64,000 nucleotides of DNA from Candidatus Woesebacteria bacterium GW2011_GWF1_31_35 (GCA_001029755.1 CP011214.1:429767-493766), one strand, 5' to 3'; shown: positions 5,604-41,762, counted from the first letter of the stretch. Notes: a model not told the origin generated them from the sequence alone. A program made the numbers and translations.

Positions 5604-6854
5604 ATGAATGATTTAATCTTACTTCCAAAAGGTACTGTAGTACCAAATCATATAGCCATGATCCTGGATGGTAATAGAAGGTGGGCAAGAGCTAGGGGTT
5701 TGAAACCCTGGGAAGGGCACTATCATGGATATCTAGCTGTGGAAAAGCTGGCAAAAGCTGTAAGGAGCTTGGGAATTCATACATATACTGTTTGGGCTTT
5801 CTCAACTGAAAATTGGGAAAGACCACAAAAAGAAATAAATGCGATAATGGACTTATTTCGTAAGGCTTTAAGAGAAAAGGAGAAAGAATTTCACAAAGAA
5901 AAGGTTGCTCTTGTACATTTAGGTAGGAAAGACAGGCTTCCTGAAGATATTAGACGGGAACTTATTAGGATTGAAAATGAAACTAAAAAATATTCTCAAA
6001 ATCATATTTATAATTTAGCTATAGACTATGGTGGAAGAGACGAGATCTTAAGAGCTTGTAGAAAGGTAATTACCGAAGGAATTAAACCAGATGAATTAAA
6101 TGAGAAAATATTTGAAAAATATCTTGATACTTACAATCAACCTTACCCATATCCAGATTTGTTTATTAGAACTTCAGGAGAACAAAGAACATCAGGTCTT
6201 CTTCCTTGGCAAATGACGTATGCTGAATTTTATTTCGAAACTACACACTTACCAGATTTTTCACCAGAAAAGTTAAAAGAAGCAATTTTAGATTTTTCAA
6301 GACGTAGAAGGAGATTTGGAGGAAATGATGAAGTAGAACATTTCAATTTTAATCCACAAATTGTGGCTAACTTGGAACTTAAGTGGTGGAGACTTACAAA
6401 AATTCCTAAAGGTACAAAACTGACTGAATATGCAATAGATCATTTTCGAAAACAATATGGATTATCTAAAGAACTTGCTAAAAGAGCTGTTAAATATACT
6501 CTTGAAGCTATTGAATATCAGGAAAAAGAAAAATGGGATCAGGCAAAAATATCTTTAAAGAAGTTTTACAAACTTATAAAGGGTGAGCTTAAACTTGCTT
6601 TTGAACCTGAAATTGTTGCCTCCTTGGAAGTTAAATTAAATAAAGAAAAAGGAGAATCAGAGGAAACTACAAAAGAACATTTAGCAGAAGTTTATAGAAT
6701 TTCACTTTTTCAGGCCACAAAGGCAGCTCACCTTAGAGTTTTGGCCAATGTAGAAAAGAATTTAGCGCAAAAAGGAATGGGAGAAGTTCATTGGCAAAAA
6801 GCAGAAAAGTATCTTGAAAAGTATTATAGTGCCCTAAAAGAACGAATTGCATGA
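5604..6854 (+). CDS. uppS: Undecaprenyl-diphosphate synthase (cis-prenyltransferase) with ~170-aa C-terminal extension of unknown function
   Basis: 416 aa. Residues 15-250 carry the UppS signatures (ILDGNRRWA, ENWERP, DLFIRTSGEQRTSGLLPWQ, RRFGG). The remaining ~170 aa are a Lys/Glu-rich helical tail. Confidence 0.88.
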   Translation: MNDLILLPKGTVVPNHIAMILDGNRRWARARGLKPWEGHYHGYLAVEKLAKAVRSLGIHTYTVWAFSTENWERPQKEINAIMDLFRKALREKEKEFHKEKVALVHLGRKDRLPEDIRRELIRIENETKKYSQNHIYNLAIDYGGRDEILRACRKVITEGIKPDELNEKIFEKYLDTYNQPYPYPDLFIRTSGEQRTSGLLPWQMTYAEFYFETTHLPDFSPEKLKEAILDFSRRRRRFGGNDEVEHFNFNPQIVANLELKWWRLTKIPKGTKLTEYAIDHFRKQYGLSKELAKRAVKYTLEAIEYQEKEKWDQAKISLKKFYKLIKGELKLAFEPEIVASLEVKLNKEKGESEETTKEHLAEVYRISLFQATKAAHLRVLANVEKNLAQKGMGEVHWQKAEKYLEKYYSALKERIA

Positions 6855-8613
6855 AATGGCTAGAAAAAATTCTATCTCATTTATTAAACAAAATAAATTT
6901 GTTTTAATCCTTGTTTTAATAGGTTTATTTATATTTTTTAATTCACTTTTTAATGGTTTTGTCTGGGATGATGAAGAGTTAATAGTTAATAATGTTATTA
7001 TTCATTCATTTAGCAATTTAACTAGCTTTTTTGCTGGAGGAGCATTTAATTCAGGGGGGACAGGATCTTTATCTGGGGTTTTTTATAAACCTATTATGAC
7101 TTTATGTTTTTCACTTTTATATACAATTTTTGGTAATAGGCCAATTGTCTTTCATTTATTTTCAATAATTATACATATTATAAACTCTATACTAGTTTTT
7201 TTTCTTTTTAAAGAATTTTTTCCTCATCTTGAAGCAAAAAGAAAAGAGTTGGTATCTTTTATTGTATCTTTATTTTTTTTACTCCATCCCCTTTATTCAG
7301 AAGTAGTCTTCTATATCTCAAATTTTCAAGATTTACTTTTTATGTTTTTTGGTTTATCGGCTTTTCTACTAATTTTAAAGAAACGTATTAGTGTAGTAAA
7401 TATTCTGCTTATAACTTTTTTGTTTTTGTGTTCACTTCTTTCAAAAGAAACTGGTTTAGTCTTAATAATTATTTCATCTTTGTACTCATTCCTGTTTAAG
7501 AGGAAAGAAAAAGGATTTTTTTGGGTTTATATTGCAGGTTTTACATCAGTAGTTATGTATTCTTTGATGCGTTTTGGAATTGCTAAACAGTTTTTCCCAA
7601 ACAATAATCTTGCTCCTATTGCTAGAATTAATTTAGTAGAGAGACTTATTAATTTACCTAAGATACTTCTTTTTTACATTCAAAACTTCTTTGTTCCAAT
7701 TAACTTTTCTGTCAATCAAAATTGGCTGGTTAAATCTTTAAACTTAAGGGAATTTTATATTCCGCTTATTGTCATCTTAGTTTTTTTTACCTTTATTTTT
7801 TTAATGACATTTTTATTGTGGAAGAAAAAAATAAGTTTAGGTAAGCTTTATTTTTTCTTTTTATCTTGGTTTATTTTAGGACTTTTGCCACATATTCAAA
7901 TTTTTCCACTTGATGCAACTGCAACTGGTAGGTGGTTTTACCTTCCATCACTTGGACTTTTCGGGATGATATCTGTTTTGGTATTGCTTTTAACTGATAA
8001 ATTAAAAAGTAATCAAAGAAAAACTTTATTAATTATCATTATTTTGATAGTTACAATATTTGGAATTAGAACATTTGTAAGAAGTTTTGACTGGAGAAAT
8101 GGACTTACTTTTTATAGTAAAGAAATTAAGCTCTCTGGAGACAATTTTAGCTTAGAAAATAACCTTGGTGTAGAACTCTATCGTATTGGTAAACTTGATG
8201 AGGCTGGAGTGCATTGGGAGAGGTCAGTTAATCTTGCACCTTATTGGTGGACAAATTTTAATAATTTAGGAGTTTATTGGCAAAACAAAAATGATTTAGA
8301 AAAGGCTGAAGGATATTATTTAAAATCAATTGAAAATGGAAACTACTATTTAGCTTTTGAAAATTATGCATTAGTTTTATTAAAACAGAAAAAATATACA
8401 AAAGCTAAAGAATTCTTGAATACAAATATCAAATATTTTCCACAAAACACTAATATGATTCAACTACTTGCACTTTCATATTACTTTACAGGAGATACTG
8501 ATACTGCGATTAAAGTTGTCCAATATTTAATTGATAACTCTCCAACAGAAAATAATAAGAAACTATTAGATCTTATTCAAAAAGGCGGGGATTTAAGTAA
8601 CTTGTTTGATTAA
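6847..8613 (+). CDS. GT-C fold membrane glycosyltransferase (PMT/TMTC-like) with C-terminal TPR repeats
   Basis: 588 aa. About 11 predicted TM helices. First extracytoplasmic loop carries FNGFVWDDEEL (the D-E/D-D motif of PMT/ArnT-type GT-C enzymes). C-terminal ~170 aa form TPR-like repeats. Overlaps uppS by 8 nt. Confidence 0.6.
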   Translation: MHEMARKNSISFIKQNKFVLILVLIGLFIFFNSLFNGFVWDDEELIVNNVIIHSFSNLTSFFAGGAFNSGGTGSLSGVFYKPIMTLCFSLLYTIFGNRPIVFHLFSIIIHIINSILVFFLFKEFFPHLEAKRKELVSFIVSLFFLLHPLYSEVVFYISNFQDLLFMFFGLSAFLLILKKRISVVNILLITFLFLCSLLSKETGLVLIIISSLYSFLFKRKEKGFFWVYIAGFTSVVMYSLMRFGIAKQFFPNNNLAPIARINLVERLINLPKILLFYIQNFFVPINFSVNQNWLVKSLNLREFYIPLIVILVFFTFIFLMTFLLWKKKISLGKLYFFFLSWFILGLLPHIQIFPLDATATGRWFYLPSLGLFGMISVLVLLLTDKLKSNQRKTLLIIIILIVTIFGIRTFVRSFDWRNGLTFYSKEIKLSGDNFSLENNLGVELYRIGKLDEAGVHWERSVNLAPYWWTNFNNLGVYWQNKNDLEKAEGYYLKSIENGNYYLAFENYALVLLKQKKYTKAKEFLNTNIKYFPQNTNMIQLLALSYYFTGDTDTAIKVVQYLIDNSPTENNKKLLDLIQKGGDLSNLFD

Positions 8614-8640
8614 AAGTCTTAAAATTACTTAAAGTGCTTA

Positions 8641-9507: not shown

Positions 9508-10863
9508 ATGTTTCCTGCCGAGACATCACTAATACCTGCAACTGTAGCTCTTGTTCGTTTCTATATAGAGAACGGATTCTTGGTATTTTTCCATAATTAT
9601 CCATTTTGGTATCTTGGTTCGACCCCATTTAAGTTTTTAATTGGCCCAATTATTCCAATAATTACCAGATTTATTGGAATTTTACTCCCTAATGTATCAT
9701 TATTTAATATATTGATATATTTTGTAATACTTAGTTTTGTAATTTCAGCAGTTGGGTGGGGGATTTTAGTCAAAAAAATCACCAATAATAAGATACTTAC
9801 ATTTTTGGTGGTATTTATCTTTCTAATTTTACCTGGTAAGTACTTTACAGCTTTTGGTTTAGAAGAAGCCACATACATAATTGCAAGAAATTTGCTTCCA
9901 TTCCTATTTTTATTTATTTTAGAAAAGAAAAAAATAACCTCGATTCTTTTTTTAAGCCTAATTTTACTAATTAATACAAGTATTTTAACTCAAAGTTTGG
10001 TAGGAATCGGGGCAATTTCTTTAAATCTAAAGGCTTTTAAAAAAAATTTAGCTTTAATTCTTTATTCATTAATAGTAATTACCTTTTGGTACACACCAAC
10101 CTACTGGTTAACAATTCTATTTAACCCTTCAATAGGGGGATTATCTTTAGGAAAACTATCTTTAAGGGTATTTGAACTTGTTAGAAGTTTACTTCCAGTA
10201 TTATTAGCCTTCTTTGTAGTTAGATTGGGTAAAATTAAAAGACCAATTTTAGAAAGATTTGGTTTAATCTGGTTTGGGGTGTTTACCTTTTTAACATTTT
10301 ATAGATTTGTAGCTGATTATGATTTCTGGTCAGATTGGACAGCTTGGTTGCCTGAACTTGAAATTGGTTTTGCTATTCTTTTTACATATTATTACCAAGC
10401 TAAAAGTTATAAAAATATTTTATGCATTATTTTAATTATTCTTTTACCAACATATATTATTATTAAAAATATATCGTTTAAAAATTTGATAACAAGTTCA
10501 CCTCCAAGGTATATGCAAAGTATTGATAAACTAAGTAAACTATCAGATGGTAAAAATGTATTTCTATCAGGAAGTTCAGTCTTTTGGGTGAATGCTTTTT
10601 ATAATATAAACCAAGTCAGAGGTGGTAAAGACCAGGTATCAATGCATAAAACTTGGGATAAAGCTTCATATGAATTTAGAGAAGGGGATGATGTAGAAAA
10701 AACCTTCATCTGGTTAAAAAATTTAAATATAAACTATGTACTTGTCCATACAAGCGAGTCTCAAGAGTATTATAAAGACTTTCAAAATATATATAAATGG
10801 AACAACGTAGGTGAAGTTGTTTGGCAAGATAATGGTGATTTTATTGTCAAAACTTCAGATTAG
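9508..10863 (+). CDS. Polytopic membrane protein with C-terminal soluble domain (possible GT-C-like)
   Basis: 451 aa. About 9 TM helices followed by a ~130-aa hydrophilic C-terminal domain. Architecture resembles the 20040 and 22699 proteins. Confidence 0.45.
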   Translation: MFPAETSLIPATVALVRFYIENGFLVFFHNYPFWYLGSTPFKFLIGPIIPIITRFIGILLPNVSLFNILIYFVILSFVISAVGWGILVKKITNNKILTFLVVFIFLILPGKYFTAFGLEEATYIIARNLLPFLFLFILEKKKITSILFLSLILLINTSILTQSLVGIGAISLNLKAFKKNLALILYSLIVITFWYTPTYWLTILFNPSIGGLSLGKLSLRVFELVRSLLPVLLAFFVVRLGKIKRPILERFGLIWFGVFTFLTFYRFVADYDFWSDWTAWLPELEIGFAILFTYYYQAKSYKNILCIILIILLPTYIIIKNISFKNLITSSPPRYMQSIDKLSKLSDGKNVFLSGSSVFWVNAFYNINQVRGGKDQVSMHKTWDKASYEFREGDDVEKTFIWLKNLNINYVLVHTSESQEYYKDFQNIYKWNNVGEVVWQDNGDFIVKTSD

Positions 10864-10880: not shown

Positions 10881-11183
10881 TTATTTATTGATTAAATATA
10901 TTGTAAGTAGAGTTAAGTCAATAATAACAAAGAAGATAAACAAACCTATTAACCATCTATTAATAACAATTTTAGATTTAATTTTAATATGTTTTACTTT
11001 GTGATGAGTATTATAAATACTAATAAGCTGTAGTTTGTTATAGTATCTTCTGTTTGTTGGTGTTCTTAGGGGTTTTATATAACCATTTCTTTCCCATCTT
11101 CTTAAAGTGTCTTTAGAAATTTTTAGTAATTTAGAAGCCTCTGAAATTGATAATCGAATATTTAAATCTGTATTCATATACAT
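10881..11183 (-). CDS. Membrane-anchored MerR-type HTH protein
   Basis: 100 aa. N-terminal LSISEASKLLKISKDTLRRWERNGYIKPLRTPTNRRYY (MerR/excisionase HTH). C-terminal TM helix. Divergent from the 11518 gene. Confidence 0.55.
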   Translation of the reverse strand: MYMNTDLNIRLSISEASKLLKISKDTLRRWERNGYIKPLRTPTNRRYYNKLQLISIYNTHHKVKHIKIKSKIVINRWLIGLFIFFVIIDLTLLTIYLINK

Positions 11184-11517
11184 ATATTTACATATATATC
11201 ATTTAGTTGTCAATTACTAATGAGCTACATATAGAAAACATAGTAATAGTAATCTAGTCTTAGATAATAGCTTTAAATTTGACTTGGTGAGCTTAAAAAG
11301 TATTGTTTATTAAGTTATTAACTATCTTATGTTTAAGGTTAACACGTACAGTTTAGGTAGCGTAAGGGTAAAATCGGACACTTTTTGGATACAGATTTAT
11401 CTTTATTTATCATATTAATATATCTTATAATACTTTATTAAATATATATTTCCCCATAAATTAAAGACTATTGACAGGAGTTAGTATGGTATCTGACAAT
11501 TATACTAACTTAAATAT

Positions 11518-14500
11518 ATGACTGCACTTGATAAAAAGAAAGAAATTGTTGATTTAGTAACATCTAAGCAAGTAAATGTTTCTAATATTGCAAGAAAATA
11601 TGGTATTTCTAGAGATACTATATATAGGTGGGTCAATAACGGAGTCAAAACAGATAATTATTTAAGGGGTGATAGTCATCCAAACGCTATATATCCTAAA
11701 GCAAAAAAAGAAGTTATAAGACTTATAGTTAAAGACCCTTCTTTAGGTTGTAGGAAATTAAGTCAGGAATTATTAGGCAAGAATATTAAATTGAGTCATT
11801 CTCAAGTAAATAAACTTTTAAACAAATTGGGTGCTGAAAATTATGATAGAAGAGTTAATTTTACGAAAAATTATCAAGGTCCTAGAAGATTTAAGGATGA
11901 TGTGAGAAGCGAAATAGTTAATAGGCATTTGGAAGGAGAAAAGATTTCAGATTTAGCTTCAAAATATAGTATTTCAAGGGATACTATTTATAGATGGATT
12001 AATAATCATAACTCAGGAGTTGGTTTATCTGATAAATATGTAAAGGGAGAAAATCATCCAAAGGCTATTTATCCTTCACTAGAGCCTGAAGTACTACAAA
12101 TAGTAGGGAGTAATCCAGGTCTTTCAGCACACTTGATTGCGAAAGAAGTTAATTGTTCTGTTTGGACTATTTGGAAAATATTAGACAAGAATAATTTAAA
12201 TCTTGCTTCTCAAAGAATTGCATATGCTAATGAACTTTCTACAAGAGAACAAAAAGTTATCGAATCGAAAGCTTCTGATACAGTTAGATCTGTTTTTGAT
12301 AGTTTTGTTCCAAACGTAGCCCCAGCACCACCGCCATCTAAATTTAATTTTAAATTACTTCGTTTCTTTGTCATCTTCCCCATTTTTGTATTTTTAATAA
12401 CCTATGCAAGTATGTATTGGATATCAACTATTACTTCAATTGGAGCAATATTTGCAACTGTCGCGTTAGTTATGGGTATGTTCTTCTTCATGTACTCACT
12501 TAAATATTATCTTTCTTTAGCAATTGTACTTTCTAATTTACAAGAAGATGGGATAGTAAAGAGGGGTAAAAACCTAATTGATTGGGTCTTGGGAAATAAC
12601 TCAGATATAGTAAACAATAATTCTAAATTTATTGGTCTCGAGCCAAATATTGACAATATAATTTTAAAAAACCATCCATTTGTTTCAGTCCATGTTGCAC
12701 TTTTCAACGAAAGAAACGTGGTAGATAGATTAGTTAAGGCTGTAACTTCATTTGAATATGATAATTATGAAGTTATTTTAGCTGATGATTCAACAGATGA
12801 AACATCTGAAAAAATTAGACAGTATCAGGAAAAGTATCTATTTAAAGGAGAAACTTTAAAAGAAACAAAAGGTGATGGTTGGACTTTAACCTCAGTCGAA
12901 GTTAGAAAAGGTGTAACTTTTAAACACTTACACAGAATAAATAGGTTAGGTTACAAAGGAGGAGCCCTAGATCTTGCCTTAAAATTAACAGATTCAAGGG
13001 CAGAATATGTTTCTATCTTTGATGCTGACTTTGTACCATATCCTGATTCTATTAGTTTATTTCTAAAGTACTTCCAAGCCCAGAATGATCCTAATGTAGC
13101 AGCAGTTCAAGGGTATCAATGGCATGTATTAAACAAATCAGAAAACTGGATCACAAGGGGAGTTAGAAGTGAATACTCAGGCTCATATGTTATTGAACGC
13201 GCTGGTACTGAAATATATGGTGGTTTAAAACAAATATCAGGCTCTGTTTATATGATCAAGAAGAATATTCTAGAATCAATTGGTTGGGGAACATCAATTA
13301 CTGAAGATTTTGAACTTACCTTAAAGCTTTACGAGAAAGGCTACAAAGTAGTTTATACTCCATACATTCAAGCCCCAGCAGAATGTGTTTCTACCTTAAA
13401 ACGCTTAATTCGTCAAAGGATGCGTTGGGCTGAAGGACATTCATTTAACATTAAAAGAATGTTTAAAAAATTAATGTTATCTCCAAAACTTTCATTTGCT
13501 GAAAAGTTTGAAACTGCCTACCTTACCCCATACTACTTACAAGCATTCTTCTTCCTTGTAGGTACTCTTTCCTGGCTTATTTCAGAAACCATCTTTAAAG
13601 TTAGACTTCCTTTCTGGACAGAACTTTGGGGATGGAGTTTAGTTCTTACAAACATGATTTCCTTACCACTTCTTAATTCAGTAGGTCTTTTCCTAGAAGA
13701 ATCAGAACAGAAAGACTATTCAGGAATTGCATCCTTTGTTGCTCTATCATATGTAGTTGTTCCATTCCAAGCATATGCTTCCATTAAAGGCTTTATTGAA
13801 TCCTCAGAAGGTCCATGGTTTAGAACACCAAAGACAGGTAAAATCACAGATATCTTCTCTAGAAACAAATTCTATAGATTTATACAGGGAATTATTCCTG
13901 GTAAATCTCCAGTTTTAGAAGAGAGCTATTTAGCATTAACTACAGCTAATAATAGGTTTGATAATTTTAATATCAAAAAAGCAAAGAATAAAAGATGGAT
14001 TGGGAAAACATTTTTAGTAGTACTTCTGTCCATTAGTATTACTATTTATAGCATGTCAGACAGTTTGGTTAAAATGTCATATGCTGCAATGGATAATTTG
14101 GGAGATGGATCTGATGGTGCAATTACTGTTTCATCAAATACGAATTGCCAGACAACAGATATTTCGATAGACGATGGAGATTCAACAGCGGATTGCATGG
14201 CAACTTATGTAAGTAGTACTTCTAGTTCAGGGGGAGCAACTCTAAATGTAAGTTCAACAACTGGTTTTTATGCAAATGATGAGATTTTAATTATTTCAAT
14301 TCTTGGAACTAGTCCTACTGCTGGGATTTATGAATTTAAAACAATTCAATCGATTGGTGCTGGAAGTTTTACTTTAACTACTAACTTATCTAATACATAT
14401 ACATACAGTTCAGATGTGGCTGAAACAATGGTTGTTAGAGTTCCACAATACACTAGTGTAACAATAGATACTGGTATTACTTTAAATGTTTCAGCTTATT

Positions 14501-15708
14501 CCACAACAAATAACACCGGTGGCATTTTGGCCTTTAGGGCTACTGGAACAGTAACTGTGACAGGTTATATTAATTTAAATGGTCTGGGATTCCCAGGAGG
14601 AGCCCAGAAAACGGGTGGGAGTGGTGGTACAAGTGGAGGTACAGGTGGAGCTGCAACTTCAGGGGATAATGGATTAGGTGGTGGTAAAGGTTTGGCCGGT
14701 GGAGCGGGAGGAAATCCTGGGTCTGGAAGTGGAACAAAAGGTGGAGGAGGCGCTGGTGGTACAGATGGAGGTGGTGGAGGAGGTTGCTATTATTCAGAAT
14801 GTACTGCGGGAGGAAGTGGAACTTCGGGGACAGGTGGAAATAGTGGTGGTGGTACAAGTGGGGGTACTGGAAGCGCTGGGTCTTTGGGTTCTGCTGGGTC
14901 ATCATATGGATCAGCCGACTTAAGTTCGATGTTTTTTGGTTCTGGTGGTGCCAGTGGAGCAGGTGGAGCAGGTGGGGGAGGTGGAGATACTGCCGGTGGA
15001 GCAGGTGGTAATGGTGGAGCAGGTGGGGGAGGTGGGGGAATAATTTATATATCTGCAAATAGTATATCTGTTTCAGGATCTGTGTCTGTGACTGGATCTA
15101 ATGGAAGTCTCGGAGAGAGTGGAAATGGGGGTAATTCTTCAACTGGTCCCAACGTTCCCGGCGGAGGTGGAGCTCCTGGAGCAGGTGGGGGAGGTGGAGC
15201 AGGTGGATCAATTTTTTTGAGAGCAACTAGTTTGACAATGGGAAGTAGTTTAATTATAAGTACGGCTGGTTCAGGTGCTAGTGGTGGAGCAAGTGGTGGA
15301 GTTGGGGGGGAATTTGACCCTGATCCATTAGTTATAGGTGATGAGTATTCTGGTGGTAATAGTAGTGCAGGTGCTGGTGGAGGAGCGGCAGTTAGTAAAA
15401 AGGTGGGTGGTAATGCTAGTGGCGGTGGGGCAGGAAGTGGTGGTAACGGGAGTGCTGGTAGGATTCATATAGAGTATGATACCGGCTATACTGGAGAAAG
15501 TGATCCAATATCGGATAAATCTCAAATTCCTGAAAATGTAATTTTATTATTACCATTAATTTTATTATTTCCTAAAGTATTAGAATGGTTTAAGAAAAAA
15601 AGAAAAAAGTCTAAAGATCTAAAACCAAAAGATTTTGTTTATATTTTCAAAAATATTTGTACAATCAATAATGAATACTATTATTTTTGGCGAGGGCCAC
15701 CAAGTTAA
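11518..15708 (+). CDS. Giant multidomain membrane protein: two transposase-type HTH modules, a processive GT2 polysaccharide synthase, a Thr/Ser-rich beta-rich domain, a Gly-rich low-complexity region and a PEP-CTERM-like tail
   Basis: 1396 aa in one uninterrupted ORF. Residues ~1-250 are two tandem repeats of an IS481/IS630-like N-terminal DNA-binding module (GISRDTIYRW... HP.AIYP... LG.RKL...SHSQV/CSVWTI). They are followed by TM helices and a GT2 core with VALFNE, ILADDSTDET, DADF, TEDFEL and QRMRWAEGH (QxxRW) motifs plus further TM helices. Residues ~880-1040 are a Thr/Ser-rich beta domain and ~1040-1330 are Gly/Ser/Ala low complexity. The C-terminus is ...SQIPENVILLLPLILLFPKVLEWFKKKRKK (motif, TM helix, basic cluster). 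Confidence 0.8.
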   Translation: MTALDKKKEIVDLVTSKQVNVSNIARKYGISRDTIYRWVNNGVKTDNYLRGDSHPNAIYPKAKKEVIRLIVKDPSLGCRKLSQELLGKNIKLSHSQVNKLLNKLGAENYDRRVNFTKNYQGPRRFKDDVRSEIVNRHLEGEKISDLASKYSISRDTIYRWINNHNSGVGLSDKYVKGENHPKAIYPSLEPEVLQIVGSNPGLSAHLIAKEVNCSVWTIWKILDKNNLNLASQRIAYANELSTREQKVIESKASDTVRSVFDSFVPNVAPAPPPSKFNFKLLRFFVIFPIFVFLITYASMYWISTITSIGAIFATVALVMGMFFFMYSLKYYLSLAIVLSNLQEDGIVKRGKNLIDWVLGNNSDIVNNNSKFIGLEPNIDNIILKNHPFVSVHVALFNERNVVDRLVKAVTSFEYDNYEVILADDSTDETSEKIRQYQEKYLFKGETLKETKGDGWTLTSVEVRKGVTFKHLHRINRLGYKGGALDLALKLTDSRAEYVSIFDADFVPYPDSISLFLKYFQAQNDPNVAAVQGYQWHVLNKSENWITRGVRSEYSGSYVIERAGTEIYGGLKQISGSVYMIKKNILESIGWGTSITEDFELTLKLYEKGYKVVYTPYIQAPAECVSTLKRLIRQRMRWAEGHSFNIKRMFKKLMLSPKLSFAEKFETAYLTPYYLQAFFFLVGTLSWLISETIFKVRLPFWTELWGWSLVLTNMISLPLLNSVGLFLEESEQKDYSGIASFVALSYVVVPFQAYASIKGFIESSEGPWFRTPKTGKITDIFSRNKFYRFIQGIIPGKSPVLEESYLALTTANNRFDNFNIKKAKNKRWIGKTFLVVLLSISITIYSMSDSLVKMSYAAMDNLGDGSDGAITVSSNTNCQTTDISIDDGDSTADCMATYVSSTSSSGGATLNVSSTTGFYANDEILIISILGTSPTAGIYEFKTIQSIGAGSFTLTTNLSNTYTYSSDVAETMVVRVPQYTSVTIDTGITLNVSAYSTTNNTGGILAFRATGTVTVTGYINLNGLGFPGGAQKTGGSGGTSGGTGGAATSGDNGLGGGKGLAGGAGGNPGSGSGTKGGGGAGGTDGGGGGGCYYSECTAGGSGTSGTGGNSGGGTSGGTGSAGSLGSAGSSYGSADLSSMFFGSGGASGAGGAGGGGGDTAGGAGGNGGAGGGGGGIIYISANSISVSGSVSVTGSNGSLGESGNGGNSSTGPNVPGGGGAPGAGGGGGAGGSIFLRATSLTMGSSLIISTAGSGASGGASGGVGGEFDPDPLVIGDEYSGGNSSAGAGGGAAVSKKVGGNASGGGAGSGGNGSAGRIHIEYDTGYTGESDPISDKSQIPENVILLLPLILLFPKVLEWFKKKRKKSKDLKPKDFVYIFKNICTINNEYYYFWRGPPS
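14570..15480 (+). repeat. Gly/Ser/Ala-rich low-complexity coding repeats (GGxGGxGG) inside the 11518 CDS
   Basis: GC-skewed GGT/GGA-rich tract. It encodes a ~300-aa GGSGGTSGG-type region and generates spurious antisense ORFs. Confidence 0.7.
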
Positions 15709-15727
15709 AAATTAAAAAAAGAAATAT

Positions 15728-16276
15728 ATGAAACAAAAAAAGACATTTAAAATGATTTTGACGATACTAGCTATATCTTTAGCTGTGTTACCTTTATTGG
15801 TAAGTTTCAATGAGATTTTGACTAAAGTTTTTGAAACATTTTCTTTATATAAATGGATCGAAAATTATATAGTTCCACGCCAGGCAGCTATGGTGGGGGT
15901 TATTTTGAGCCCATTTAATATTAATTATTCTGTTTTTAGGGGTGGATTAATAATTAATGGTAGTTATGTACACATAACGTGGAATTGTATTGGTTGGCAA
16001 AGTCTTATTGTATTAATTACAACTTTTTTTGTTGGATTAAAGGGTAAAAATTATACTAATTTTTCAAAAATTGAAACAATTATACTTGGTTTAGTTGGGA
16101 CATTACTTATTAATTTACTAAGAATGTCAATTCTAATTCTGTTGTATGTTTATGCAACAGAACTGTCAATGATAATCTTTCATAATTATTTTGCAGCTAT
16201 AATGACGATGTTATGGTTAGCATTCTTTTGGTGGTTTTCATACCTTTACATTTTAGAAGAAAAAAATAATATTTGA
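15728..16276 (+). CDS. Miniature exosortase/archaeosortase-family protein (putative sorting transpeptidase)
   Basis: 182 aa, about 5 TM helices. Candidate catalytic Cys in VHITWNCIGWQSL. An NxxR motif about 40 residues downstream (INLLRMSILILL), as in XrtA/ArtA. Starts 20 nt after a gene whose product ends in a PEP-CTERM-like tail. Confidence 0.55.
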   Translation: MKQKKTFKMILTILAISLAVLPLLVSFNEILTKVFETFSLYKWIENYIVPRQAAMVGVILSPFNINYSVFRGGLIINGSYVHITWNCIGWQSLIVLITTFFVGLKGKNYTNFSKIETIILGLVGTLLINLLRMSILILLYVYATELSMIIFHNYFAAIMTMLWLAFFWWFSYLYILEEKNNI

Positions 16277-16535
16277 TACTTATCAAATTGTTTTATTGTT
16301 TTCATTAATTATTTTATGATAAAATATATTCTACTAATAAAAAATAAGGAGAGTTAATAAATAATAAAAATTGACTACTTTGATAATTTCTTAATTCTTA
16401 TTTTTCTAGTATAGAAAAAATGACTGAATATAGTTCAACCATTTGTCTTGGTGAGAGAGTATTTGTTAACATAATATGTCCATTCGAATAGATATTCTTT
16501 CTCTAAAATAATCATTAATAGTTTTTGATAAGTCT

Positions 16536-19445
16536 ATGTTTAGCCACTATTTGAGGAGGAAACAAATTCTGTATTTAGCATTTTTTGTGTCTGGAATTTC
16601 TGCAATAATATACGAAATTCTTTGGATAAGAGTTCTTTCGCTTGCTTTTGGTGCTGTAACAATAATAATTGCCTCTGTGGCTAGTTTGTTTCTATTAGGT
16701 TTATGCCTTGGTTCTTTTATAGGTGGAAGGTTTACAGACATTGTTTCAAAACATAAGCTTAATTATTTGTTTATTCTTTATTTCTTAATCGAAATTTCCG
16801 TTGGTCTATTTGCTTACGTGAACTTTAACCTTTTTTCATCCTTTTCTTTAGCTGCTGGTCAATATAGATATTTTGTTGTGTTAATATGTATTTTGATACA
16901 TTCTTTTTTGCTGGGGGCTACATGGCCAATGATGTTTAAAATGATTTTAAGTATGGGAGAGGATTGGAATGTTGCTGGAAAGATTACTTTTATTAATACT
17001 TTCGGTGGTTTTATTGGTGCAGCTTCATCTAATTTCTTTCTGATTGCAAATATTGGTTTAGAAAAAACTTTGTTTTTGGCGATATCCTTGAATCTACTGG
17101 CCTCGTTTATGGTACTATCTTCCTATAGTAGAAATTATTTTTTTTCAAATAACTTAATAAACGTAAAACAGTTGAAAGAAAAACGTGTTTTTTTAGATGG
17201 AAAATTTTGGATTTTTGGTTTGATGTTTTTTACGGGGTTTGTTGGAATGGGACTTGAAATTTTGTGGATGAGAACCTTTGGACTTATTTTTGGTAATTCA
17301 ATTTATTCTTTTTCAATTTTACTTGCAGTAATTTTACTTTCCCTGTCTTTGGGGGGACTAATTATCGGATTTATGAAATCAAGTAAAGTATCTATAAATG
17401 GATTGATAAATATTATAGTTTTAGGGGTAATCTCTATTTTAATTGGAATGATTTTAATTGGTAGATTTCCAGAAATATTATTGTCCCTTAAAATAAATCT
17501 AATAGAATCATTTATAAGTTATAGTCTGCTTCAGTTTGTCTTTGTGGGTGTAATAGTAGTTATTCCTGCCATGCTATCTGGGATGGTGTTTCCATATGGC
17601 GTTAGGATGCTCAAAATTTATAACAACATACCAGGAACTATTTCAGGATTTTCATATTTTATAAACACCCTAGGGTCAGTTTTTGGTGGTTTAATTTCAG
17701 CAATGTTTATCCTTCCTTTTTTGGGAATAAAAAATGGACTAATTTTTCTGACAGGACTTTTTTTCTTTCTTCCAGTTATTTGGTTTATCAGTAAAAAAAG
17801 AAATAAAGATATATTTTTTTTGACACTAATTATTTTTGTTTTAGGATTAATAGCTTTTAAAACTTGGGATGAAAGAAAATTAGCCTCCGGAGTATATTAT
17901 TATGGGGGCCGTGCAATGAATGAAGGTGGTTGGAATATGATTTATTATAAAGATGGTAGGGAATCGACAGTGTCGGTTACAAGGTATAGGGGAGAAAATG
18001 CATTAAGAATAAATGGAAAAGTTGATGCGTCTAGCAAAGGAGATAGGGAAACACAATTAATGCTAGGTCATGTCCCAGTACTTCTAAGTAGAAACCCAAA
18101 AAACGTTTTAGTGATAGGGTTAGGTAGTGGTACAACAGCCGGAGCGGTAAATAAGCATGATGATGTTACAAACTTAACAGTTGTTGAAATTGAACCAGAG
18201 GTTGCAAAGGTTGCAGAAAAATATTTCTTTGAAGTAAACAATTTAGTTTTGAGTGATCCAGAAACCAAGTTAGTTATTAATGATGCACGGAATTTTTTGT
18301 TGAAAACAAAGGATAAATATGATGTTATTACTTCGGAACCGTCTAATCCTTGGATTGCAGGTGAAGGCAGTCTTTTTACAAAAGAATTTTTTGAGATAGG
18401 CAAATCAAAACTTGATAATAATGGGATTTTTTTTCAATGGTTACATTTATATAATATTGGCCAATCTGAAGTTAAAAGTGTGTTGGCTACATTCAAATCA
18501 GTTTTTCCACATACATTAATTTTGATAGGTGTAGAACCTAATGATATTTTCTTGGCTGGTAGTAATGAAAAAATAGATATTGATTGGAACAGGTTTATTA
18601 CCTTTAAATCAGACAATTTTAATATCGGGTCAGACATTATGAGTTTATTTTGTAATACTGAAATATCATCGGAAATGGTCACGAATAGTGAAATTAATAT
18701 AGATAATAAACCCACACTTGAATATAGGTCACCCTTTAATTTAAGAAAAAATACTCTTCCCAGCAATTTTTCCTTTATATTAAAATTCTGTCAGGAACCA
18801 AAAAGACTATTAGATAATTTAGAGGTTCCACAAGAATATAGAGAATCGTTAATACTCACGCTAAAGGCTAGAAAAAAACTATTAGAAGCAGAGATTGAAT
18901 ATGAAAAAGGTAATATTGACAATGCGATTTATTTACTTGAGGAAGCGATAAAAGATGATAAAAACACGCCCCATGTTAAAGAACGGACAGCAGAGTTATA
19001 TGTTGAAAAAGCGGATGAGTTAATCTCAAGCATGGGTTTTATTAATAACAGTGTTGCAGAAAGATATTTGATTGATTCAATTTATTTTGCACCGAATTAT
19101 TATAATGGATCTATTAGTTTGATGTATTTATATATAAACCAAGGAAGATTGAAAGAAGCTGAAGAATTAATAAAAGAAAGCGAAAAAAAGTTTCCATGGT
19201 CGGGTGCTGTTTTAATGTATAAAGGGATAATAACTGGATTAAATGGTGATAGCTCAAAAGAAGAAAAATTATTGCTTGAAGCCTATTCACTTGAGGGTTG
19301 GAATACTGTAATTATTAACAATTTAGCCAATTTCTATTTATCAAAAGGTGATGAAGAAAAAGCTATTGAGATGTTGGAAAAATCTGTAATAATTGATTCT
19401 GATCAACAAATTGTTCTCAAATGGTTACGCGAATTAAAGAATTAA
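16536..19445 (+). CDS. Spermidine-synthase-like (aminopropyltransferase fold) membrane protein with C-terminal TPR repeats
   Basis: 969 aa. About 12 N-terminal TM helices. Central class-I MTase/spermidine synthase fold (VLVIGLGSGTTAG... VVEIEPEV... DVITSEPSNPW). C-terminal ~250 aa TPR-like. Confidence 0.7.
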   Translation: MFSHYLRRKQILYLAFFVSGISAIIYEILWIRVLSLAFGAVTIIIASVASLFLLGLCLGSFIGGRFTDIVSKHKLNYLFILYFLIEISVGLFAYVNFNLFSSFSLAAGQYRYFVVLICILIHSFLLGATWPMMFKMILSMGEDWNVAGKITFINTFGGFIGAASSNFFLIANIGLEKTLFLAISLNLLASFMVLSSYSRNYFFSNNLINVKQLKEKRVFLDGKFWIFGLMFFTGFVGMGLEILWMRTFGLIFGNSIYSFSILLAVILLSLSLGGLIIGFMKSSKVSINGLINIIVLGVISILIGMILIGRFPEILLSLKINLIESFISYSLLQFVFVGVIVVIPAMLSGMVFPYGVRMLKIYNNIPGTISGFSYFINTLGSVFGGLISAMFILPFLGIKNGLIFLTGLFFFLPVIWFISKKRNKDIFFLTLIIFVLGLIAFKTWDERKLASGVYYYGGRAMNEGGWNMIYYKDGRESTVSVTRYRGENALRINGKVDASSKGDRETQLMLGHVPVLLSRNPKNVLVIGLGSGTTAGAVNKHDDVTNLTVVEIEPEVAKVAEKYFFEVNNLVLSDPETKLVINDARNFLLKTKDKYDVITSEPSNPWIAGEGSLFTKEFFEIGKSKLDNNGIFFQWLHLYNIGQSEVKSVLATFKSVFPHTLILIGVEPNDIFLAGSNEKIDIDWNRFITFKSDNFNIGSDIMSLFCNTEISSEMVTNSEINIDNKPTLEYRSPFNLRKNTLPSNFSFILKFCQEPKRLLDNLEVPQEYRESLILTLKARKKLLEAEIEYEKGNIDNAIYLLEEAIKDDKNTPHVKERTAELYVEKADELISSMGFINNSVAERYLIDSIYFAPNYYNGSISLMYLYINQGRLKEAEELIKESEKKFPWSGAVLMYKGIITGLNGDSSKEEKLLLEAYSLEGWNTVIINNLANFYLSKGDEEKAIEMLEKSVIIDSDQQIVLKWLRELKN

Positions 19446-19721
19446 TATATTTTTTATAATATTACTAGTTAAAATAGATCATCAGATAAAAACTAAAAAA
19501 TAATTAATTTTTTTAGAAATCAACCGGAATTGGTGTGGGTATTGTGTGAGCATGTATTATTAAGTGTAAAGTATCCAATTTATTAAAACAAATTCATCAA
19601 AAAAGCAAATAAAAAGAGGATTAGTTTTTAAATTATAAAAAAACACATAATCCTCTCTTTTTCAGCTACATACTATCTGCGGGTAGAAAAATAGAACATA
19701 CGACACTACTGTCTAAACAAA

Positions 19722-19865
19722 CTATACCACAGGAAATGGTTCAGAAACAAGTATAGGATCATATGGAAATGGTGGAACCTCTCTCTTTGCTGCTAAGACG
19801 TCAGTCTTGGTACCTAAAATAAATAATGCTGTAAATAACATAGCTACTAAAATTGCTTTTTTCAA
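19722..19865 (-). CDS. Small secreted proline-rich peptide (TTG start), hypothetical
   Basis: 47 codons. Strong SD (GGGGGTGA) 6 nt upstream of TTG. N-terminal signal peptide KKAILVAMLFTALFILGTKTDVLA followed by AKREVPPFPYDPILVSEPFPVV. Confidence 0.3.
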   Translation of the reverse strand: MKKAILVAMLFTALFILGTKTDVLAAKREVPPFPYDPILVSEPFPVV

Positions 19866-20039
19866 TTTAAATCACCCCCTTGCATATTACTATATGATAG
19901 TACATTTTAAATTATTAATAAGTCAAGACATAAAAAACAAATGTTAGTTTTAATAAAATTATGTTACGCAATAATTGTATTTAAAGATTTTATTATCTAT
20001 CTATTTTAGAAAATTGTTAATTATGTTATAAATAAATAA

Positions 20040-21344
20040 ATGGAAAATGTTCCTAGAGAAACAGAAACAATAGCTGCTAAAAGATCTCTAAGGCTAGCTG
20101 AAAAGATTAGGAATGCTAGAGGAAGGATAACTGTTACTAATTCATGGTGGAACACTCAAGGGTTTGAATTTCTATTACTTCTAATAATTTTTTTATTTAA
20201 TGTATTTTCAATCTATTTCTATTTTGGAACTGCAACAAGTAGTGATACCTTCTTTTCAGGTCCAATAATTCCTTTAATGGCAAAGTTTTTTACAATTTTT
20301 AAAATACCTCTTTCTTACGCGTTTCAAATAGTAAACATTATATTTTTTGTTAGTTTTCCCTTTACTCTTTATTTTTTGATAAAAGAAGTAACAGGTAGAA
20401 AAATAATTGCCTTTATGTCAATTTTAATCGCAAGTTTACCCTTTTATCCATTTGCCCAGGTTAGGGTACTTTCTGCCCTAAATGGAATAGATAGTGCACA
20501 CGTAGCTAGTCTTACAATCACATCTCTTGCGCTTTTAGCCCTTTTTTCATTTTTAAAGGATGGTGGAGCAAAAAATTTGTTCAAATCAAGTTTAACAGCT
20601 TCATTAATTGCACTTATCTCGCCATTTGGTTTTACAACTTTTTTGATTTTTTCTGTAATTTTAACTTTTTCTGAAATGCTTTTAGGTGGGGGAAGACTTA
20701 AATTTTTTAGATTTTTGAGTATGCTCTTTTTTACAGGAACACTTGTTGCTTTTTGGTATAACCCCAGTTTTTCTTTTTGGATATTAACAGGAGATTTGGG
20801 TGAAGAAGTAAGAAGAACATTTACAAAACTTATTCCACTATCTTTTTTTGCTATTCCTGCAATTGCTGTTTTTGGATATCTTCTTTTTGACAGAAAGCCT
20901 AGTTTGCAGCCTGTATTTTTAGCAAGCTTTTTTACAATTGCATTTATTCTAATTTCATTTGCAGGGGGTGGAATTTTTCCATCACACCCTTCAAGATACA
21001 TTCCAGAACTTGGAATATCATTATCTTACTTAATTAGTGTAGTTTTATTAAAAGCATATGAAAGTTTACCTTTCTTTAAAACTCACAGGCCTGTTGCAAA
21101 GGTAATTTTAACCATTATGTTTTTAAGCCTTGGCTTAGGAATTATTTTAGGTTCAAGTAATCTTGCCCCAAAGGAAGATGTTTTAGGAATTTGGACAGGA
21201 ATTGAAAAAGGGACATTATGGAGAGAAAAGGAAAGATTTAATGGTATAAGTTCAGCTATTGGATATTTAGTTTCAACTGCTAGTTTATTTTTTCTAACCT
21301 TCCTCTATACTAAAAATTCAAAGCAGGTAAGTGTTACAAGTTAA
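20040..21344 (+). CDS. Polytopic membrane protein (possible GT-C-like), hypothetical
   Basis: 434 aa. About 11 TM helices. No recognisable catalytic motif. Confidence 0.45.
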   Translation: MENVPRETETIAAKRSLRLAEKIRNARGRITVTNSWWNTQGFEFLLLLIIFLFNVFSIYFYFGTATSSDTFFSGPIIPLMAKFFTIFKIPLSYAFQIVNIIFFVSFPFTLYFLIKEVTGRKIIAFMSILIASLPFYPFAQVRVLSALNGIDSAHVASLTITSLALLALFSFLKDGGAKNLFKSSLTASLIALISPFGFTTFLIFSVILTFSEMLLGGGRLKFFRFLSMLFFTGTLVAFWYNPSFSFWILTGDLGEEVRRTFTKLIPLSFFAIPAIAVFGYLLFDRKPSLQPVFLASFFTIAFILISFAGGGIFPSHPSRYIPELGISLSYLISVVLLKAYESLPFFKTHRPVAKVILTIMFLSLGLGIILGSSNLAPKEDVLGIWTGIEKGTLWREKERFNGISSAIGYLVSTASLFFLTFLYTKNSKQVSVTS

Positions 21345-22619: not shown

Positions 22620-22698
22620 ATTGTTAAATATAGATTCACCTATTCTTCTTGCTGATAGTATTATTAAGTTATATTTGATAAATTAATAATTAGAAAAT

Positions 22699-24285: not shown

Positions 24286-24316
24286 ATAATTTATTATCAT
24301 AAGCTTTTAAAATTAA

Positions 24317-27203: not shown

Positions 27204-27208
27204 AAGAG

Positions 27209-28393: not shown

Positions 28394-28394
28394 A

Positions 28395-28856: not shown

Positions 28857-28931
28857 TGTTGAATCATTTTTACCATGTTTAATTTGTTGTTACAAGTCCA
28901 AAACAAATAAATTTAGCTTTAGGTTTTATTT

Positions 28932-29777: not shown

Positions 29778-29860
29778 ATTATATATAAATACTTCCTTTA
29801 TTGATATACAATTGGATTTAAATAAAATAATATAAAATTATTAATATTTCCAATTTCAAT

Positions 29861-41529: not shown

Positions 41530-41762
41530 ATCAAAACTTGCCTATAAACGATAAACATCATCATTTGGAATCAATAGTAAAACTTGTTTTAAAAACAGTA
41601 GTTCCTATTTTTATTCTTATAGGTGGTATAGCTTTACTAACATTAAGAATTGCTGGTTGGAGTATTATATTTGGACTTCCAATGGTTGTAATTGGAGTAG
41701 TTTTTTTAATCTATACTTATGATGAGATTGTATCATCTAGTCTTGGTGATGATACTAACTAA
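41526..41762 (+). CDS. Small membrane protein (2 TM), hypothetical
   Basis: 78 aa, two hydrophobic helices. Overlaps the stop of the upstream gene. Confidence 0.35.
   Translation: MNQNLPINDKHHHLESIVKLVLKTVVPIFILIGGIALLTLRIAGWSIIFGLPMVVIGVVFLIYTYDEIVSSSLGDDTN

Follow-up and report, generated by a model that had tools for sequence, protein, structure and literature searches.

Two genes at the locus

This analysis concerns two adjacent genes within a window of 64,000 nt (the whole stretch of DNA analysed, with positions counted from its start) of Candidatus Woesebacteria bacterium GW2011_GWF1_31_35, an ultra-small, Microgenomates-like member of the Patescibacteria from groundwater. The upstream gene is a 1396-codon open reading frame (ORF) that encodes two helix-turn-helix (HTH) modules, a processive GT2 glycan synthase, an ectodomain and a C-terminal tail resembling a protein-sorting signal. 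The downstream gene encodes a protein of 182 amino acids (aa) of the exosortase/archaeosortase family, referred to here as the mini-exosortase. The two genes probably constitute a dedicated exosortase-type sorting pair in a glycan-synthase locus, a statement made with moderate confidence for the mechanism as a whole. The ORF list confirms the coordinates and lengths (1396 and 182 aa) reported in a preliminary description made from the sequence alone, with the gap between the ORFs being 19 nt instead of the 20 nt given there. The window is AT-rich (26-37% GC in 2-kb windows), and GC reaches 40% only over 14001-16000, because of Gly codons. The features of the pair are as follows; L-numbers, here and below, denote loci of relatives.

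11518..15708, + strand: synthase-cargo ORF, 1396 aa, with two HTH modules, processive GT2 synthase, ectodomain and putative VPEN-type C-terminal sorting tail (ORF list, Pfam/NCBIfam)
11518..11895, + strand: HTH module 1, aa 1-126, matching HTH_28, HTH_29 and positions 2-126 of 284 of the IS481 profile
11896..12267, + strand: HTH module 2, aa 127-250, matching HTH_23, HTH_32 and positions 2-124 of 299 of the IS630 profile
12355..12492, + strand: two N-terminal transmembrane helices, aa 280-298 and 307-325 (Kyte-Doolittle scan; helices H29-52 and H57-94 of the AF2, i.e. AlphaFold, core model)
12676..13614, + strand: GT2 (GT-A) catalytic domain, aa 387-699 (Pfam PF13632/PF13641/PF00535)
13816..13839, + strand: WFRTPKTG, aa 767-774 (invariant alignment columns W517-G524)
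13993..14085, + strand: last synthase helix and putative internal signal peptide, aa 826-856, with basic n-region, core 828-846 and SYA/AMD at the candidate site after aa 856
14086..14637, + strand: Thr/Ser-rich part of the ectodomain, aa 857-1040, 77% identical in L087
14638..15525, + strand: Gly-rich part of the ectodomain, aa 1041-1336, with embedded beta-strand-like segments
15526..15609, + strand: sorting-signal-like tail, aa 1337-1364, with IPENV abutting the helix ILLLPLILLFPKVLEWF, then KKKRKK at 1359-1364
15610..15708, + strand: 32-aa extension, predicted to be cytoplasmic and ending WRGPPS, plus the stop codon (read from the sequence)
15728..16276, + strand: mini-exosortase ORF, 182 aa (TIGR04178 match)
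15986-15988, 16112-16123 and 16181-16183, + strand: Cys87, Asn129..Arg132 and His152 of the mini-exosortase (30-sequence alignment)

The mini-exosortase

The 182-aa protein scores 28.3 bits against the family model TIGR04178 over aa 81-171 (cutoff 23), and the same model is matched by 30 of 30 aligned relatives with a best E of 9.4e-13. The Pfam model PF09721 reaches only 14.8 on the query against a cutoff of 25.7 and is a precomputed annotation on many relatives. Close relatives (E at most 0.001) number 86 and span 136-294 aa; an exhaustive profile search yields 584 cluster representatives, mostly of 185-205 aa. Among 30 members with 37-83% identity to the query, W85-N-C87-x-G-W-Q, G124, N129, R132 and H152 are invariant. 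The Cys motif TWNCIGW and the NxxR motif about 40 residues later, from which exosortase membership had been suggested, are thereby located at Cys87 and at N129-x-x-R132, 42-45 residues further on, and the membership holds both by the TIGR04178 cutoff and by the invariant Cys, Arg and His positions. Cys, Arg and His are the proposed catalytic triad of the exosortase/archaeosortase family (Haft preprint, 10.1101/2023.06.07.544157).

No cutoff of a named subfamily (XrtA-XrtX, ArtA-ArtF, CrtA-C, XrtG, XrtM, pacearchaeosortase) is reached. The best subfamily scores of the query are 17.4 bits for ArtC (cutoff 100) and 14.6 bits for XrtM (cutoff 125). Over the 30 relatives the best E values are 3.2e-9 for ArtC, 1.5e-6 for CrtC and 1.9e-6 for XrtM, all far from the cutoffs, and the XrtG model TIGR03110 gives a weak match in two of the 30 (6.2e-5). 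Since all 30 match TIGR04178 and none comes near any named cutoff, the mini-exosortases are classified, by sequence, as exosortase superfamily members of an unnamed subfamily. Some JGI records also label relatives 'exosortase/archaeosortase family protein'.

Hydropathy gives four strong hydrophobic segments in the 182-aa protein. The AF2 model (predicted local distance difference test, pLDDT, 85.3; predicted template-modelling score, pTM, 0.80) is all-helical except for a beta-hairpin loop. This suggests four membrane helices with Cys87, Arg132 and His152 directed towards the outer face, the placement of the active site relative to the membrane faces being derived from hydropathy and the positive-inside rule. 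Publicly annotated versions of the mini-exosortase (P0001, 174 aa) begin at 15752, the internal Met9; the 182-aa start at 15728 is the better one because the N-terminus MKQKKTF is conserved in relatives.

The C-terminal tail

The large protein ends in the tripartite layout that had been recognised in it, with IPENV, a hydrophobic helix and KKKRKK. The consensus of 69 unique family tails is T-[VI]-P-E-N-x-L-L-L-L-x-L-A-P-F-[LI]-P-x-x-x-[KR][KR]-L-[RK][RK][RK], with two conserved prolines inside the helix and the motif abutting the helix without a spacer. In PEP-CTERM, PGF-CTERM and GlyGly-CTERM signals the motif abuts the helix as well (Haft preprint, 10.1101/2023.06.07.544157). A profile of the tails finds one match in the window (E 5.9e-5), the next best having an E of 1.1. 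P-E/D directly precedes the C-terminal helix in 34 of 37 homologues, and the other three are false helix calls with visible VPEH tails; despite unrelated ectodomains, essentially every complete homologue ends in [VIL]-P-E-x, a helix and a Lys/Arg cluster. The C-terminal motif is thus conserved, with [VIL]-P-E before the helix in effectively all homologues, and at its third position N accounts for 34% and H for 13%, P being rare.

The PEP-CTERM model (TIGR02595) is reached by one of ten homologue tails (16.3 against a cutoff of 16), and no named sorting-domain model other than PEP-CTERM is matched among the query and ten homologue tails. Because the query lacks an NCBIfam match and only one of the ten homologue tails is borderline, the tail is assigned from its sequence to a divergent PEP-CTERM-like class.

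A stretch of about 35 aa after the basic cluster had been raised as a caveat. Its length is 32 aa, and such extensions are common: at least 15 residues follow the basic cluster in 32 of 100 unique tail-bearing proteins. In L087 the terminal WRGPP is kept and the preceding 25 residues diverge. Endings like WRGPP (window 15688-15705) recur as SRGPT, QRGPPD, GPPD and SRGPG in P0124/L127, L007, L092 and L119, and a second class of family extensions ends LD(E/S)LPV.

Linkage of tail and enzyme

The association of tail and enzyme was assessed in both directions. The forward test covered 80 loci of species-representative genomes encoding a mini-exosortase (from 201 relatives); the reverse test covered 79 metagenomic loci encoding the synthase core (from at least 574 relatives), checked to +/-10 kb. 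The pairing of synthase-cargo gene and mini-exosortase recurs in hundreds of related genomes, several of which carry two or three mini-exosortases.

By the strict motif, a tail-bearing gene lies immediately upstream on the same strand of 28 of 85 mini-exosortases, compared with 10 of 411 other genes in the same loci (odds ratio 19.7, p = 7e-16); the 10 background tail genes are themselves within 10 kb of a mini-exosortase. Counted with the tail profile, 42 of 86 mini-exosortases are adjoined by a tail and 27 more have one elsewhere in the locus. In the reverse direction, the tail is carried by 54 of 67 3'-complete synthases, and several others visibly carry one with long cytoplasmic extensions. 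Among 63 synthases with at least 700 nt of downstream sequence, a mini-exosortase lies at most 200 nt downstream in 31 and elsewhere within +/-10 kb in 25 (total 56/63). Tails are also found on non-GT2 proteins beside mini-exosortases, including those of L042 and L049, which begin with ordinary N-terminal signal peptides. The occurrence of the tail is tied to the enzyme and not to the GT2 domain.

Single-chain fusions of the components can be grouped into three types. Type one, in P0214 (946 aa) and P0239 (1227 aa), runs from GT2 synthase through helix, ectodomain, IEVPEN helix and basic linker to the mini-exosortase, the exosortase part displaying WNC(A/S)GWQ, NVLR and FH(N/D)Y. Type two, comprised of mini-exosortase, ectodomain and VPE tail, includes P0186 and about six others (P0191, P0201, P0203, P0205 and P0250 among them) as well as the 467-aa ORFs of L061/L068/L069. 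Type three, in P0146, joins a mini-exosortase to a methyltransferase.

Comparison of the window with L088 adds a third line of evidence. The flanking genes are 89.5-93.5% identical in nucleotide sequence and the GT2 core 78.5%, whereas no nucleotide similarity can be detected in the HTH head, ectodomain, tail or mini-exosortase (the two mini-exosortases share 41% aa identity). The segments dissimilar to L088 are 6853-8618 (TPR gene), 10987-12480 (5' part of a MerR-like gene, intergenic region and HTH head) and 13977-19999 (ectodomain, tail, mini-exosortase and the spermidine-synthase/TPR gene). Judged from these alignments, the locus is a mosaic hot spot, and the joint replacement of ectodomain, tail and mini-exosortase indicates that cargo and enzyme are exchanged as a unit.

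Adjacency statistics, single-chain fusions and joint cassette replacement all lend strong support to the dedicated enzyme-substrate pairing, and it is very likely that the two genes are functionally coupled. The further claim of a single substrate stands within the 64-kb window, which contains exactly one tail, one mini-exosortase and one synthase. It does not extend to related genomes, which carry two or three pairs and in which a minority of cargoes are without GT2.

Many typical family loci come from metagenome-assembled genomes (MAGs) labelled as archaea (Bathyarchaeia/Bathyarchaeota: L005, L049, L061, L068, L069) and others from MAGs labelled Gammaproteobacteria (L001, L015, L018, L019 and others). 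These labels may not be reliable, or the family may reach outside the Patescibacteria. Loci labelled Bathyarchaeota display a three-gene form, in which a synthase with tail is followed by an exosortase-cargo fusion and then by a mini-exosortase.

Continuity of the large ORF

A product of this composition raises the question of an assembly or annotation artefact, produced either when sequences were joined chimerically at the end of a contig or in a repeat, or when a decayed transposase happened to become fused to a GT2 gene. Several observations would fit such an origin. The same population has been assembled several times, and the window bridges points at which the other assemblies broke: a 583,652-bp JGI contig (3300002097, C687J26620_1000001) ends exactly at window 13792, that is codon 759, and five short contigs begin or break at 15246-15286, inside the Gly-rich coding region. 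The absence of the exact protein from the public gene catalogue is in the same direction.

Against this, the alignments of 40 homologues from other genomes run uninterrupted through aa 700-800, and the same JGI contig covers codons 759-1396 contiguously at 100% identity. In a different sample, L087 matches aa 801-1396 at 77% identity and terminates in the same way, and the complete domain order is repeated in L007, a Gottesmanbacteria protein of 1402 aa whose gene has a mini-exosortase 4 nt downstream. The HTH head is fused to GT2 in at least 38 of 53 homologues and in 33 of 50 5'-complete metagenomic homologues. On the strength of the 40 homologues, the JGI contig, L087 and L007, the 1396-codon ORF is very probably continuous, and the artefactual explanation is very improbable. 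Assembly chimera was accordingly rejected on homologue continuity. The proposed fusion therefore stands insofar as homologues align across the junction, while the exact full-length ORF occurs in no independent assembly.

The 53 homologues of the 1396-aa protein, found through the GT2 core, are 780-2361 aa long and belong to Woese-, Gottesman-, Davies- and other Microgenomates-type Patescibacteria. The order HTH, GT2, ectodomain, tail is the normal, recurrent architecture of a large Patescibacteria family. Two ORFs overlie the Gly-rich region in other frames, at 14570-15058 (- strand, 162 aa) and 14678-14923 (+ strand, 81 aa). They are shadow ORFs, His/Leu-rich or Val/Glu-rich, arising from GGN-rich sequence, and are not genes.

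The glycan synthase core

The synthase motifs DDS423, DAD502, TED595 and QRMRW633 are invariant in 34 family members, as is WFRTPKTG in the same alignment. By comparison with BcsA, WFRTPKTG is the probable counterpart of the FxVTxK gating loop of cellulose synthases, which it resembles. An AlphaFold model of the core (aa 251-891) has a pLDDT of 85-97 over the catalytic domain. Its best Foldseek matches in the PDB are BcsA (9b8v_E, 1.4e-16), Cv-HAS (8sne_A, 1.3e-15), BcsA 4p00/4hg6, Chs1/Chs2 and CesA. All are processive synthase-translocases, namely E. coli/Rhodobacter BcsA, Chlorella-virus/Xenopus hyaluronan synthases, chitin synthases and plant CesA. The E values range from 1e-16 to 1e-9, with modest TM-scores of 0.4-0.6 attributable to the low confidence at which the membrane part is modelled. 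Given the invariant motifs and the exclusively synthase-translocase top matches, the identification as a processive GT2 synthase, proposed earlier from the D/DxD/TED/QxxRW motifs and flanking helices and now joined by the BcsA/HAS/Chs/CesA fold, is well supported.

The closest sub-threshold NCBIfam relatives of the GT2 domain are PgaC/IcaA and CelA. The equivalog cutoffs that would name the polymer are not approached for PgaC_IcaA (100.3 against 422.3), CelA (69.5 against 699.1) or NodC (32.8 against 550). Among 17 NCBIfam matches of the GT2 core at E up to 0.01, there is no XrtG-associated glycosyltransferase model.

Topology and an internal signal-peptide-like helix

Strong hydrophobic segments (Kyte-Doolittle) lie at aa 280-298, 307-325, 708-726, 828-846 and 1337-1355, with further helices at about aa 660-692 and 736-760 in the AF2 core model. 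By analogy with BcsA, the catalytic domain would be followed by a QRMRW interface helix, two membrane helices, an interface helix, the cytoplasmic WFRTPKTG and the single helix 828-846. This last helix should run from inside to outside because KKAKNKR precedes it. Residues 847-1336 would consequently lie outside, and the tail helix would return with KKKRKK inside.

In an alignment of 34 homologues, helix 828-846 has a basic n-region, a core of about 18 residues and, about 10 residues further on, a putative cleavage site with Ala at -1 in 28 of 34 and V/A/S at -3 in 29 of 34, within an otherwise variable segment. The query reads S854-Y-A856 before A857, the -3/-1 pattern of signal peptidase I. 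Cutting of the ectodomain from the synthase by signal peptidase after aa 856 is a real possibility, proposed tentatively from this pattern. With the cut at aa 856, the ectodomain would become a standard cargo with signal peptide and C-terminal sorting tail.

By the rule for PEP-CTERM proteins, a signal peptide is present and there are no further membrane helices (PMC1569441). The tail of the large protein is not preceded by an N-terminal signal peptide free of further helices, the ectodomain following a multi-pass synthase; the internal cut would reconcile the fused architecture with the PEP-CTERM rule. The preliminary description had envisaged a self-anchoring synthase without noting the conserved internal signal-peptide-like helix. 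This helix changes what self-anchoring would mean.

The ectodomain

The ectodomain begins with a Thr/Ser-rich part (T16, S13 and G12% over aa 847-1040) followed by about 300 aa rich in Gly, Ser and Ala (G38, S15 and A10% over aa 1041-1336), and the composition thus bears out the division made earlier. Thr/Ser-rich sequence also lies upstream of the tail in other cargoes. The Gly-rich part had been regarded as a low-complexity linker. It contains regular strand-like segments, GGILAFRATGTVTVTGYINLNG, IIYISANSISVSGSVSVTGSNG, SIFLRATSLTMGSSLIISTAG and GRIHIEYDTGY, and the ectodomain is 77% identical in L087, which is from a different sample, with a single gap of one residue. It is shared with L007 at 45% identity. 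On account of this conservation, the Gly-rich region is read as a constrained, structured domain instead of a free linker, and may form a beta-solenoid whose turns are rich in Gly. The ectodomains of other homologues are mutually unrelated, and alignments stop near query aa 830-920. Pfam gave no match on aa 845-1396.

The HTH head

HTH profile matches cover aa 7-128 and 130-241, and the two modules are tandem duplicates (43% identity, E 5e-22). The IS481 and IS630 matches score 79.7 and 65.1 bits against cutoffs of 224 and 100. They are limited to the first approximately 125 positions of the profiles, and no DDE/rve Pfam family is matched in the 1396-aa protein, in agreement with the earlier view of two tandem IS481/IS630-type N-terminal modules without a DDE domain. 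No terminal inverted repeats or flanking repeats were found around the large gene. A transposon remnant was considered and rejected on the lack of a DDE domain, the family-wide conservation of the tandem HTH and the lack of flanking repeats. A search for operator-like repeats upstream of the large gene gave only weak AT-rich matches, none convincing.

From its sequence, the head is best described as a domesticated DNA-binding module and not a mobile element; that it is a membrane-tethered regulator of the locus is a guess. The domestication of a transposase DNA-binding module onto a membrane synthase across a whole family would represent an unexplored type of membrane-tethered HTH protein.

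Genomic neighbourhood

The pair lies in an envelope/glycan island, of which the following features were identified.

4698-5576, - strand: polyprenyl synthase
5604-6854: UppS
6847-8613: TPR protein
9508..10863, + strand: 451-aa polytopic membrane protein, with homologues in 35/80 and 24/79 loci and weak PF10131 in 3/22 members
16536..19445, + strand: 969-aa membrane / spermidine-synthase-like / TPR protein (Pfam Spermine_synth, TPR), with homologues in 5/80 and 3/79 loci
20040..21344, + strand: 434-aa polytopic membrane protein, with homologues in 17/80 and 19/79 loci and PF10131 in 7/20 members (best E 7.1e-8)
21378-31024 and 37030-38280: several GT4 glycosyltransferases, with methyltransferases
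41755-43482, - strand: ABC exporter

The 451-aa and 434-aa families are paralogues (hhalign 99.5%, E 3e-23), and both flanking proteins show a weak resemblance to PF10131, 'PTPS_related membrane protein'. A PTPS-related membrane protein presumably accompanies XrtG in Firmicutes, an association that neither NCBIfam nor the literature confirmed. NCBIfam searches with both flanking families gave no relevant match for an XrtG-associated PTPS-related model.

The 969-aa protein matches the NCBIfam fused MFS/spermidine synthase model (88.8 bits against 40), with a polytopic N-terminal region and C-terminal TPRs, and weakly matches PrsT, the TPR protein of PEP-CTERM systems. Its homologues directly precede mini-exosortases in L014 and L020, and the gene is absent from the otherwise collinear L087 and L088.

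A MerR-type HTH protein of 100 aa with a C-terminal hydrophobic helix is encoded at 10881-11183 (- strand), divergently from the large gene, and may be a membrane-tethered regulator. The segment replaced in L088 takes in part of its gene together with the 334-nt intergenic region. Within the glycan island, two adjacent ORFs, 31024-34308 (1094 aa) and 34308-37001 (897 aa), match no Pfam family at E up to 1e-5. Scanning the window for Rfam families and tRNAs gave only four tRNAs, one of which, tRNA-Trp at 62575-62650 (- strand), lies inside the 3' end of a 530-aa ORF at 61081-62673 (+ strand).

Proposed mechanism and alternatives

The domain identities, the conservation of the motif and of the catalytic residues, the genomic linkage and the fusions are observed at this locus and its relatives; the topology, both cleavages and the acceptor we infer. 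In the proposed mechanism the double HTH head and the GT2 domain would be cytoplasmic, and the synthase would work as a processive polymerase-translocase like BcsA or hyaluronan synthase. The last synthase helix (828-846, with its basic cluster on the cytoplasmic side) would carry the ectodomain of about 490 residues across the membrane, and the far end would be held by the C-terminal helix with KKKRKK in the cytoplasm. The 182-aa cysteine enzyme, with Cys87, Arg132 and His152, would recognise I/V-P-E-N at the outer face of this helix and cleave there; as the analogy with ArtA and XrtA suggests, it would probably transfer the new C-terminus to a lipid or a glycan. A signal-peptidase cut after aa 856 would make the gene effectively a polyprotein, giving rise to a synthase and to a cargo with signal peptide and sorting tail. 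Ectodomain, HTH head and sortase are swapped between close relatives, a behaviour to be expected of a variable surface module.

Several points weigh against a sorting pair. The query tail has no NCBIfam sorting-signal match at E up to 10, and its motif is P-E-N and not P-E-P. A profile search of the PDB with the mini-exosortase family gave no match, there being no solved exosortase structure for comparison. No tail-bearing ORF is found in the loci of 17 of 86 mini-exosortases, and no mini-exosortase near 7 of 63 synthases. The exact full-length 1396-aa product is absent from public assemblies and the gene catalogue by exact-sequence look-up. A multi-pass synthase precedes the cargo, and a sortase-made anchor would seem superfluous should the internal site be left uncut. 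Finally, the topology is built on hydropathy, the positive-inside rule and analogy with BcsA, and cleavage is deduced from sequence and linkage.

In an alternative without sorting, the C-terminal helix is the last synthase helix (the equivalent of TM8 of BcsA), the ectodomain is a large extracellular loop, and the 182-aa protein is a structural or regulatory synthase subunit that docks on the helix without cutting. BcsA-type synthases have two helices after the gating loop, a count that, with the BcsA fold match, suits this explanation. The synthase is already anchored in the membrane and needs no extra anchor, and a long cytoplasmic extension with conserved ends (WRGPP, LDELPV) would be odd for a discarded peptide. 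Yet Cys, Arg and His are invariant in the small protein and [VIL]-P-E is near-invariant at the start of the helix; proteins without GT2 carry the tail next to mini-exosortases, the PEP-CTERM model is reached by one tail, and a signal-peptidase-like site is conserved upstream. This alternative is judged unlikely.

The sorting reading itself admits a more specific version with a lipid acceptor. Here signal peptidase would free the ectodomain, the mini-exosortase would swap its helix for a lipid, and the ectodomains would form a monoderm surface layer; the fused synthase would only ensure that they are co-expressed and co-localised with the glycan decorating or embedding the coat. This version as a whole is an appreciable possibility, though on the doubtful side. 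There is a precedent in ArtA, which removes the PGF-CTERM helix, a prenyl-derived lipid being attached (Haft preprint, 10.1101/2023.06.07.544157). The best sub-threshold family matches of the mini-exosortases are archaeosortase C and cyanoexosortase C, a signal-peptidase-type site is conserved, the ectodomain is Thr/Ser-rich and hypervariable, and polyprenyl synthase and UppS genes lie nearby. Lipid attachment is, however, drawn from analogy, all named subfamilies are far below their cutoffs, and the c-region of the putative signal peptide is rather long, at about 10 residues.

Alternatively, in a reading that is improbable as a whole, the mini-exosortase might transfer the cargo C-terminus onto the nascent polysaccharide made by the same synthase. 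The last synthase helix would then double as the signal peptide of a hypervariable surface protein in a self-contained synthase-cargo polyprotein, and the double-HTH head would link formation of the surface module to DNA binding, via autoregulation or nucleoid tethering. If true, the long-sought acceptor of exosortase transpeptidation would be a nascent glycan, and the unit would be a swappable surface-identity cassette of ultra-small bacteria.

Overall, the observation made in the preliminary description is confirmed, and its enzyme-substrate interpretation is supported with the amendments given above. The checks proposed there against it (the catalytic positions of the small protein, the integrity of the large ORF and the conservation of the C-terminal motif) were all run, and none contradicted it.

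Exosortases were predicted in 2006, and their chemistry and cargo acceptor are still unresolved (Haft preprint, 10.1101/2023.06.07.544157). In the present family a minimal exosortase of about 180 aa, the smallest member encountered here, adjoins, and in some genomes is fused to, a single cargo joined to a polysaccharide synthase. Such a compact two-gene system, expressible heterologously, could address the transpeptidase question and distinguish a lipid from a glycan acceptor. For the Patescibacteria/candidate phyla radiation, whose cells are uncultivated and contact-dependent on other cells, the system also points to a possible way of building and varying the surface, in which a conserved synthase core is combined with an ectodomain, a DNA-binding head and a sortase that genomes with about 90% identical flanking genes exchange.

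Comparison with known systems

No literature was found linking exosortase/PEP-CTERM with Patescibacteria, the candidate phyla radiation or Microgenomates. The parts of the system can nevertheless be compared with systems described elsewhere. The N-terminal bipartite HTH DNA-binding region is shared with IS481/IS630 transposases; DDE domain and terminal inverted repeats are lacking here, and the module is duplicated and fused to a membrane enzyme family-wide. With BcsA, PgaC/IcaA, hyaluronan synthase and chitin synthase the core shares a GT-A domain with D, DxD, TED and QxxRW between membrane helices, an FxVTxK-like loop and the fold matches. It differs from them in being an equivalog of none, in lacking a PilZ domain and in carrying the N-terminal double HTH head. 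A single helix follows the gating-loop-like motif, so that the C-terminal region, with its putative sorting tail, is predicted to face outward.

The PEP-CTERM/exosortase system of XrtA/EpsH (PMC1569441) shares with the present pair the tripartite signal with a Pro-Glu motif abutting the helix and a basic cluster, a polytopic enzyme with invariant Cys, Arg and His, a glycosyltransferase-rich exopolysaccharide locus, and variable, Thr/Ser-rich cargo with little homology to other proteins. The present enzyme differs in its 182 aa and approximately 4-5 helices, compared with about 8, and reaches only the family signature and not XrtA. The motif is [VIL]-P-E-N with two conserved intrahelical prolines, and the host is presumed to be monoderm. 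An adjacent dedicated pair takes the place of one enzyme for many scattered cargoes, and the cargo lies behind a multi-pass synthase instead of an N-terminal signal peptide.

In Haloferax volcanii, the ArtA system removes the C-terminal helix from the major surface glycoprotein, to which a lipid is attached. The ArtA/PGF-CTERM S-layer glycoprotein system and the Woesebacteria pair have in common a single-membrane envelope, presumed for the latter, and the Cys/Arg/His superfamily, and the best sub-threshold subfamily of the mini-exosortases is an archaeosortase (ArtC). Motif and subfamily are different, the host is bacterial, and the cargo is fused to a synthase.

The XrtG system of Firmicutes consists of a Firmicu-CTERM protein, XrtG and two associated glycosyltransferases (PMC12854382). 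It too combines an exosortase-family enzyme, a monoderm host and a small dedicated operon with one cargo and GT2-type glycosyltransferases. In the present system cargo and synthase are one polypeptide with an HTH head, and there are only weak matches to TIGR03110 (2/30). The XrtG operon is the closest in layout, and the resemblance is one of layout only. The novelty lies in combining a minimal enzyme, a VPEN-type tail whose helix contains prolines and a cargo fused behind a processive synthase via a signal-peptide-like helix, together with a domesticated double HTH head and the modular exchange of head, ectodomain, tail and sortase between close relatives.

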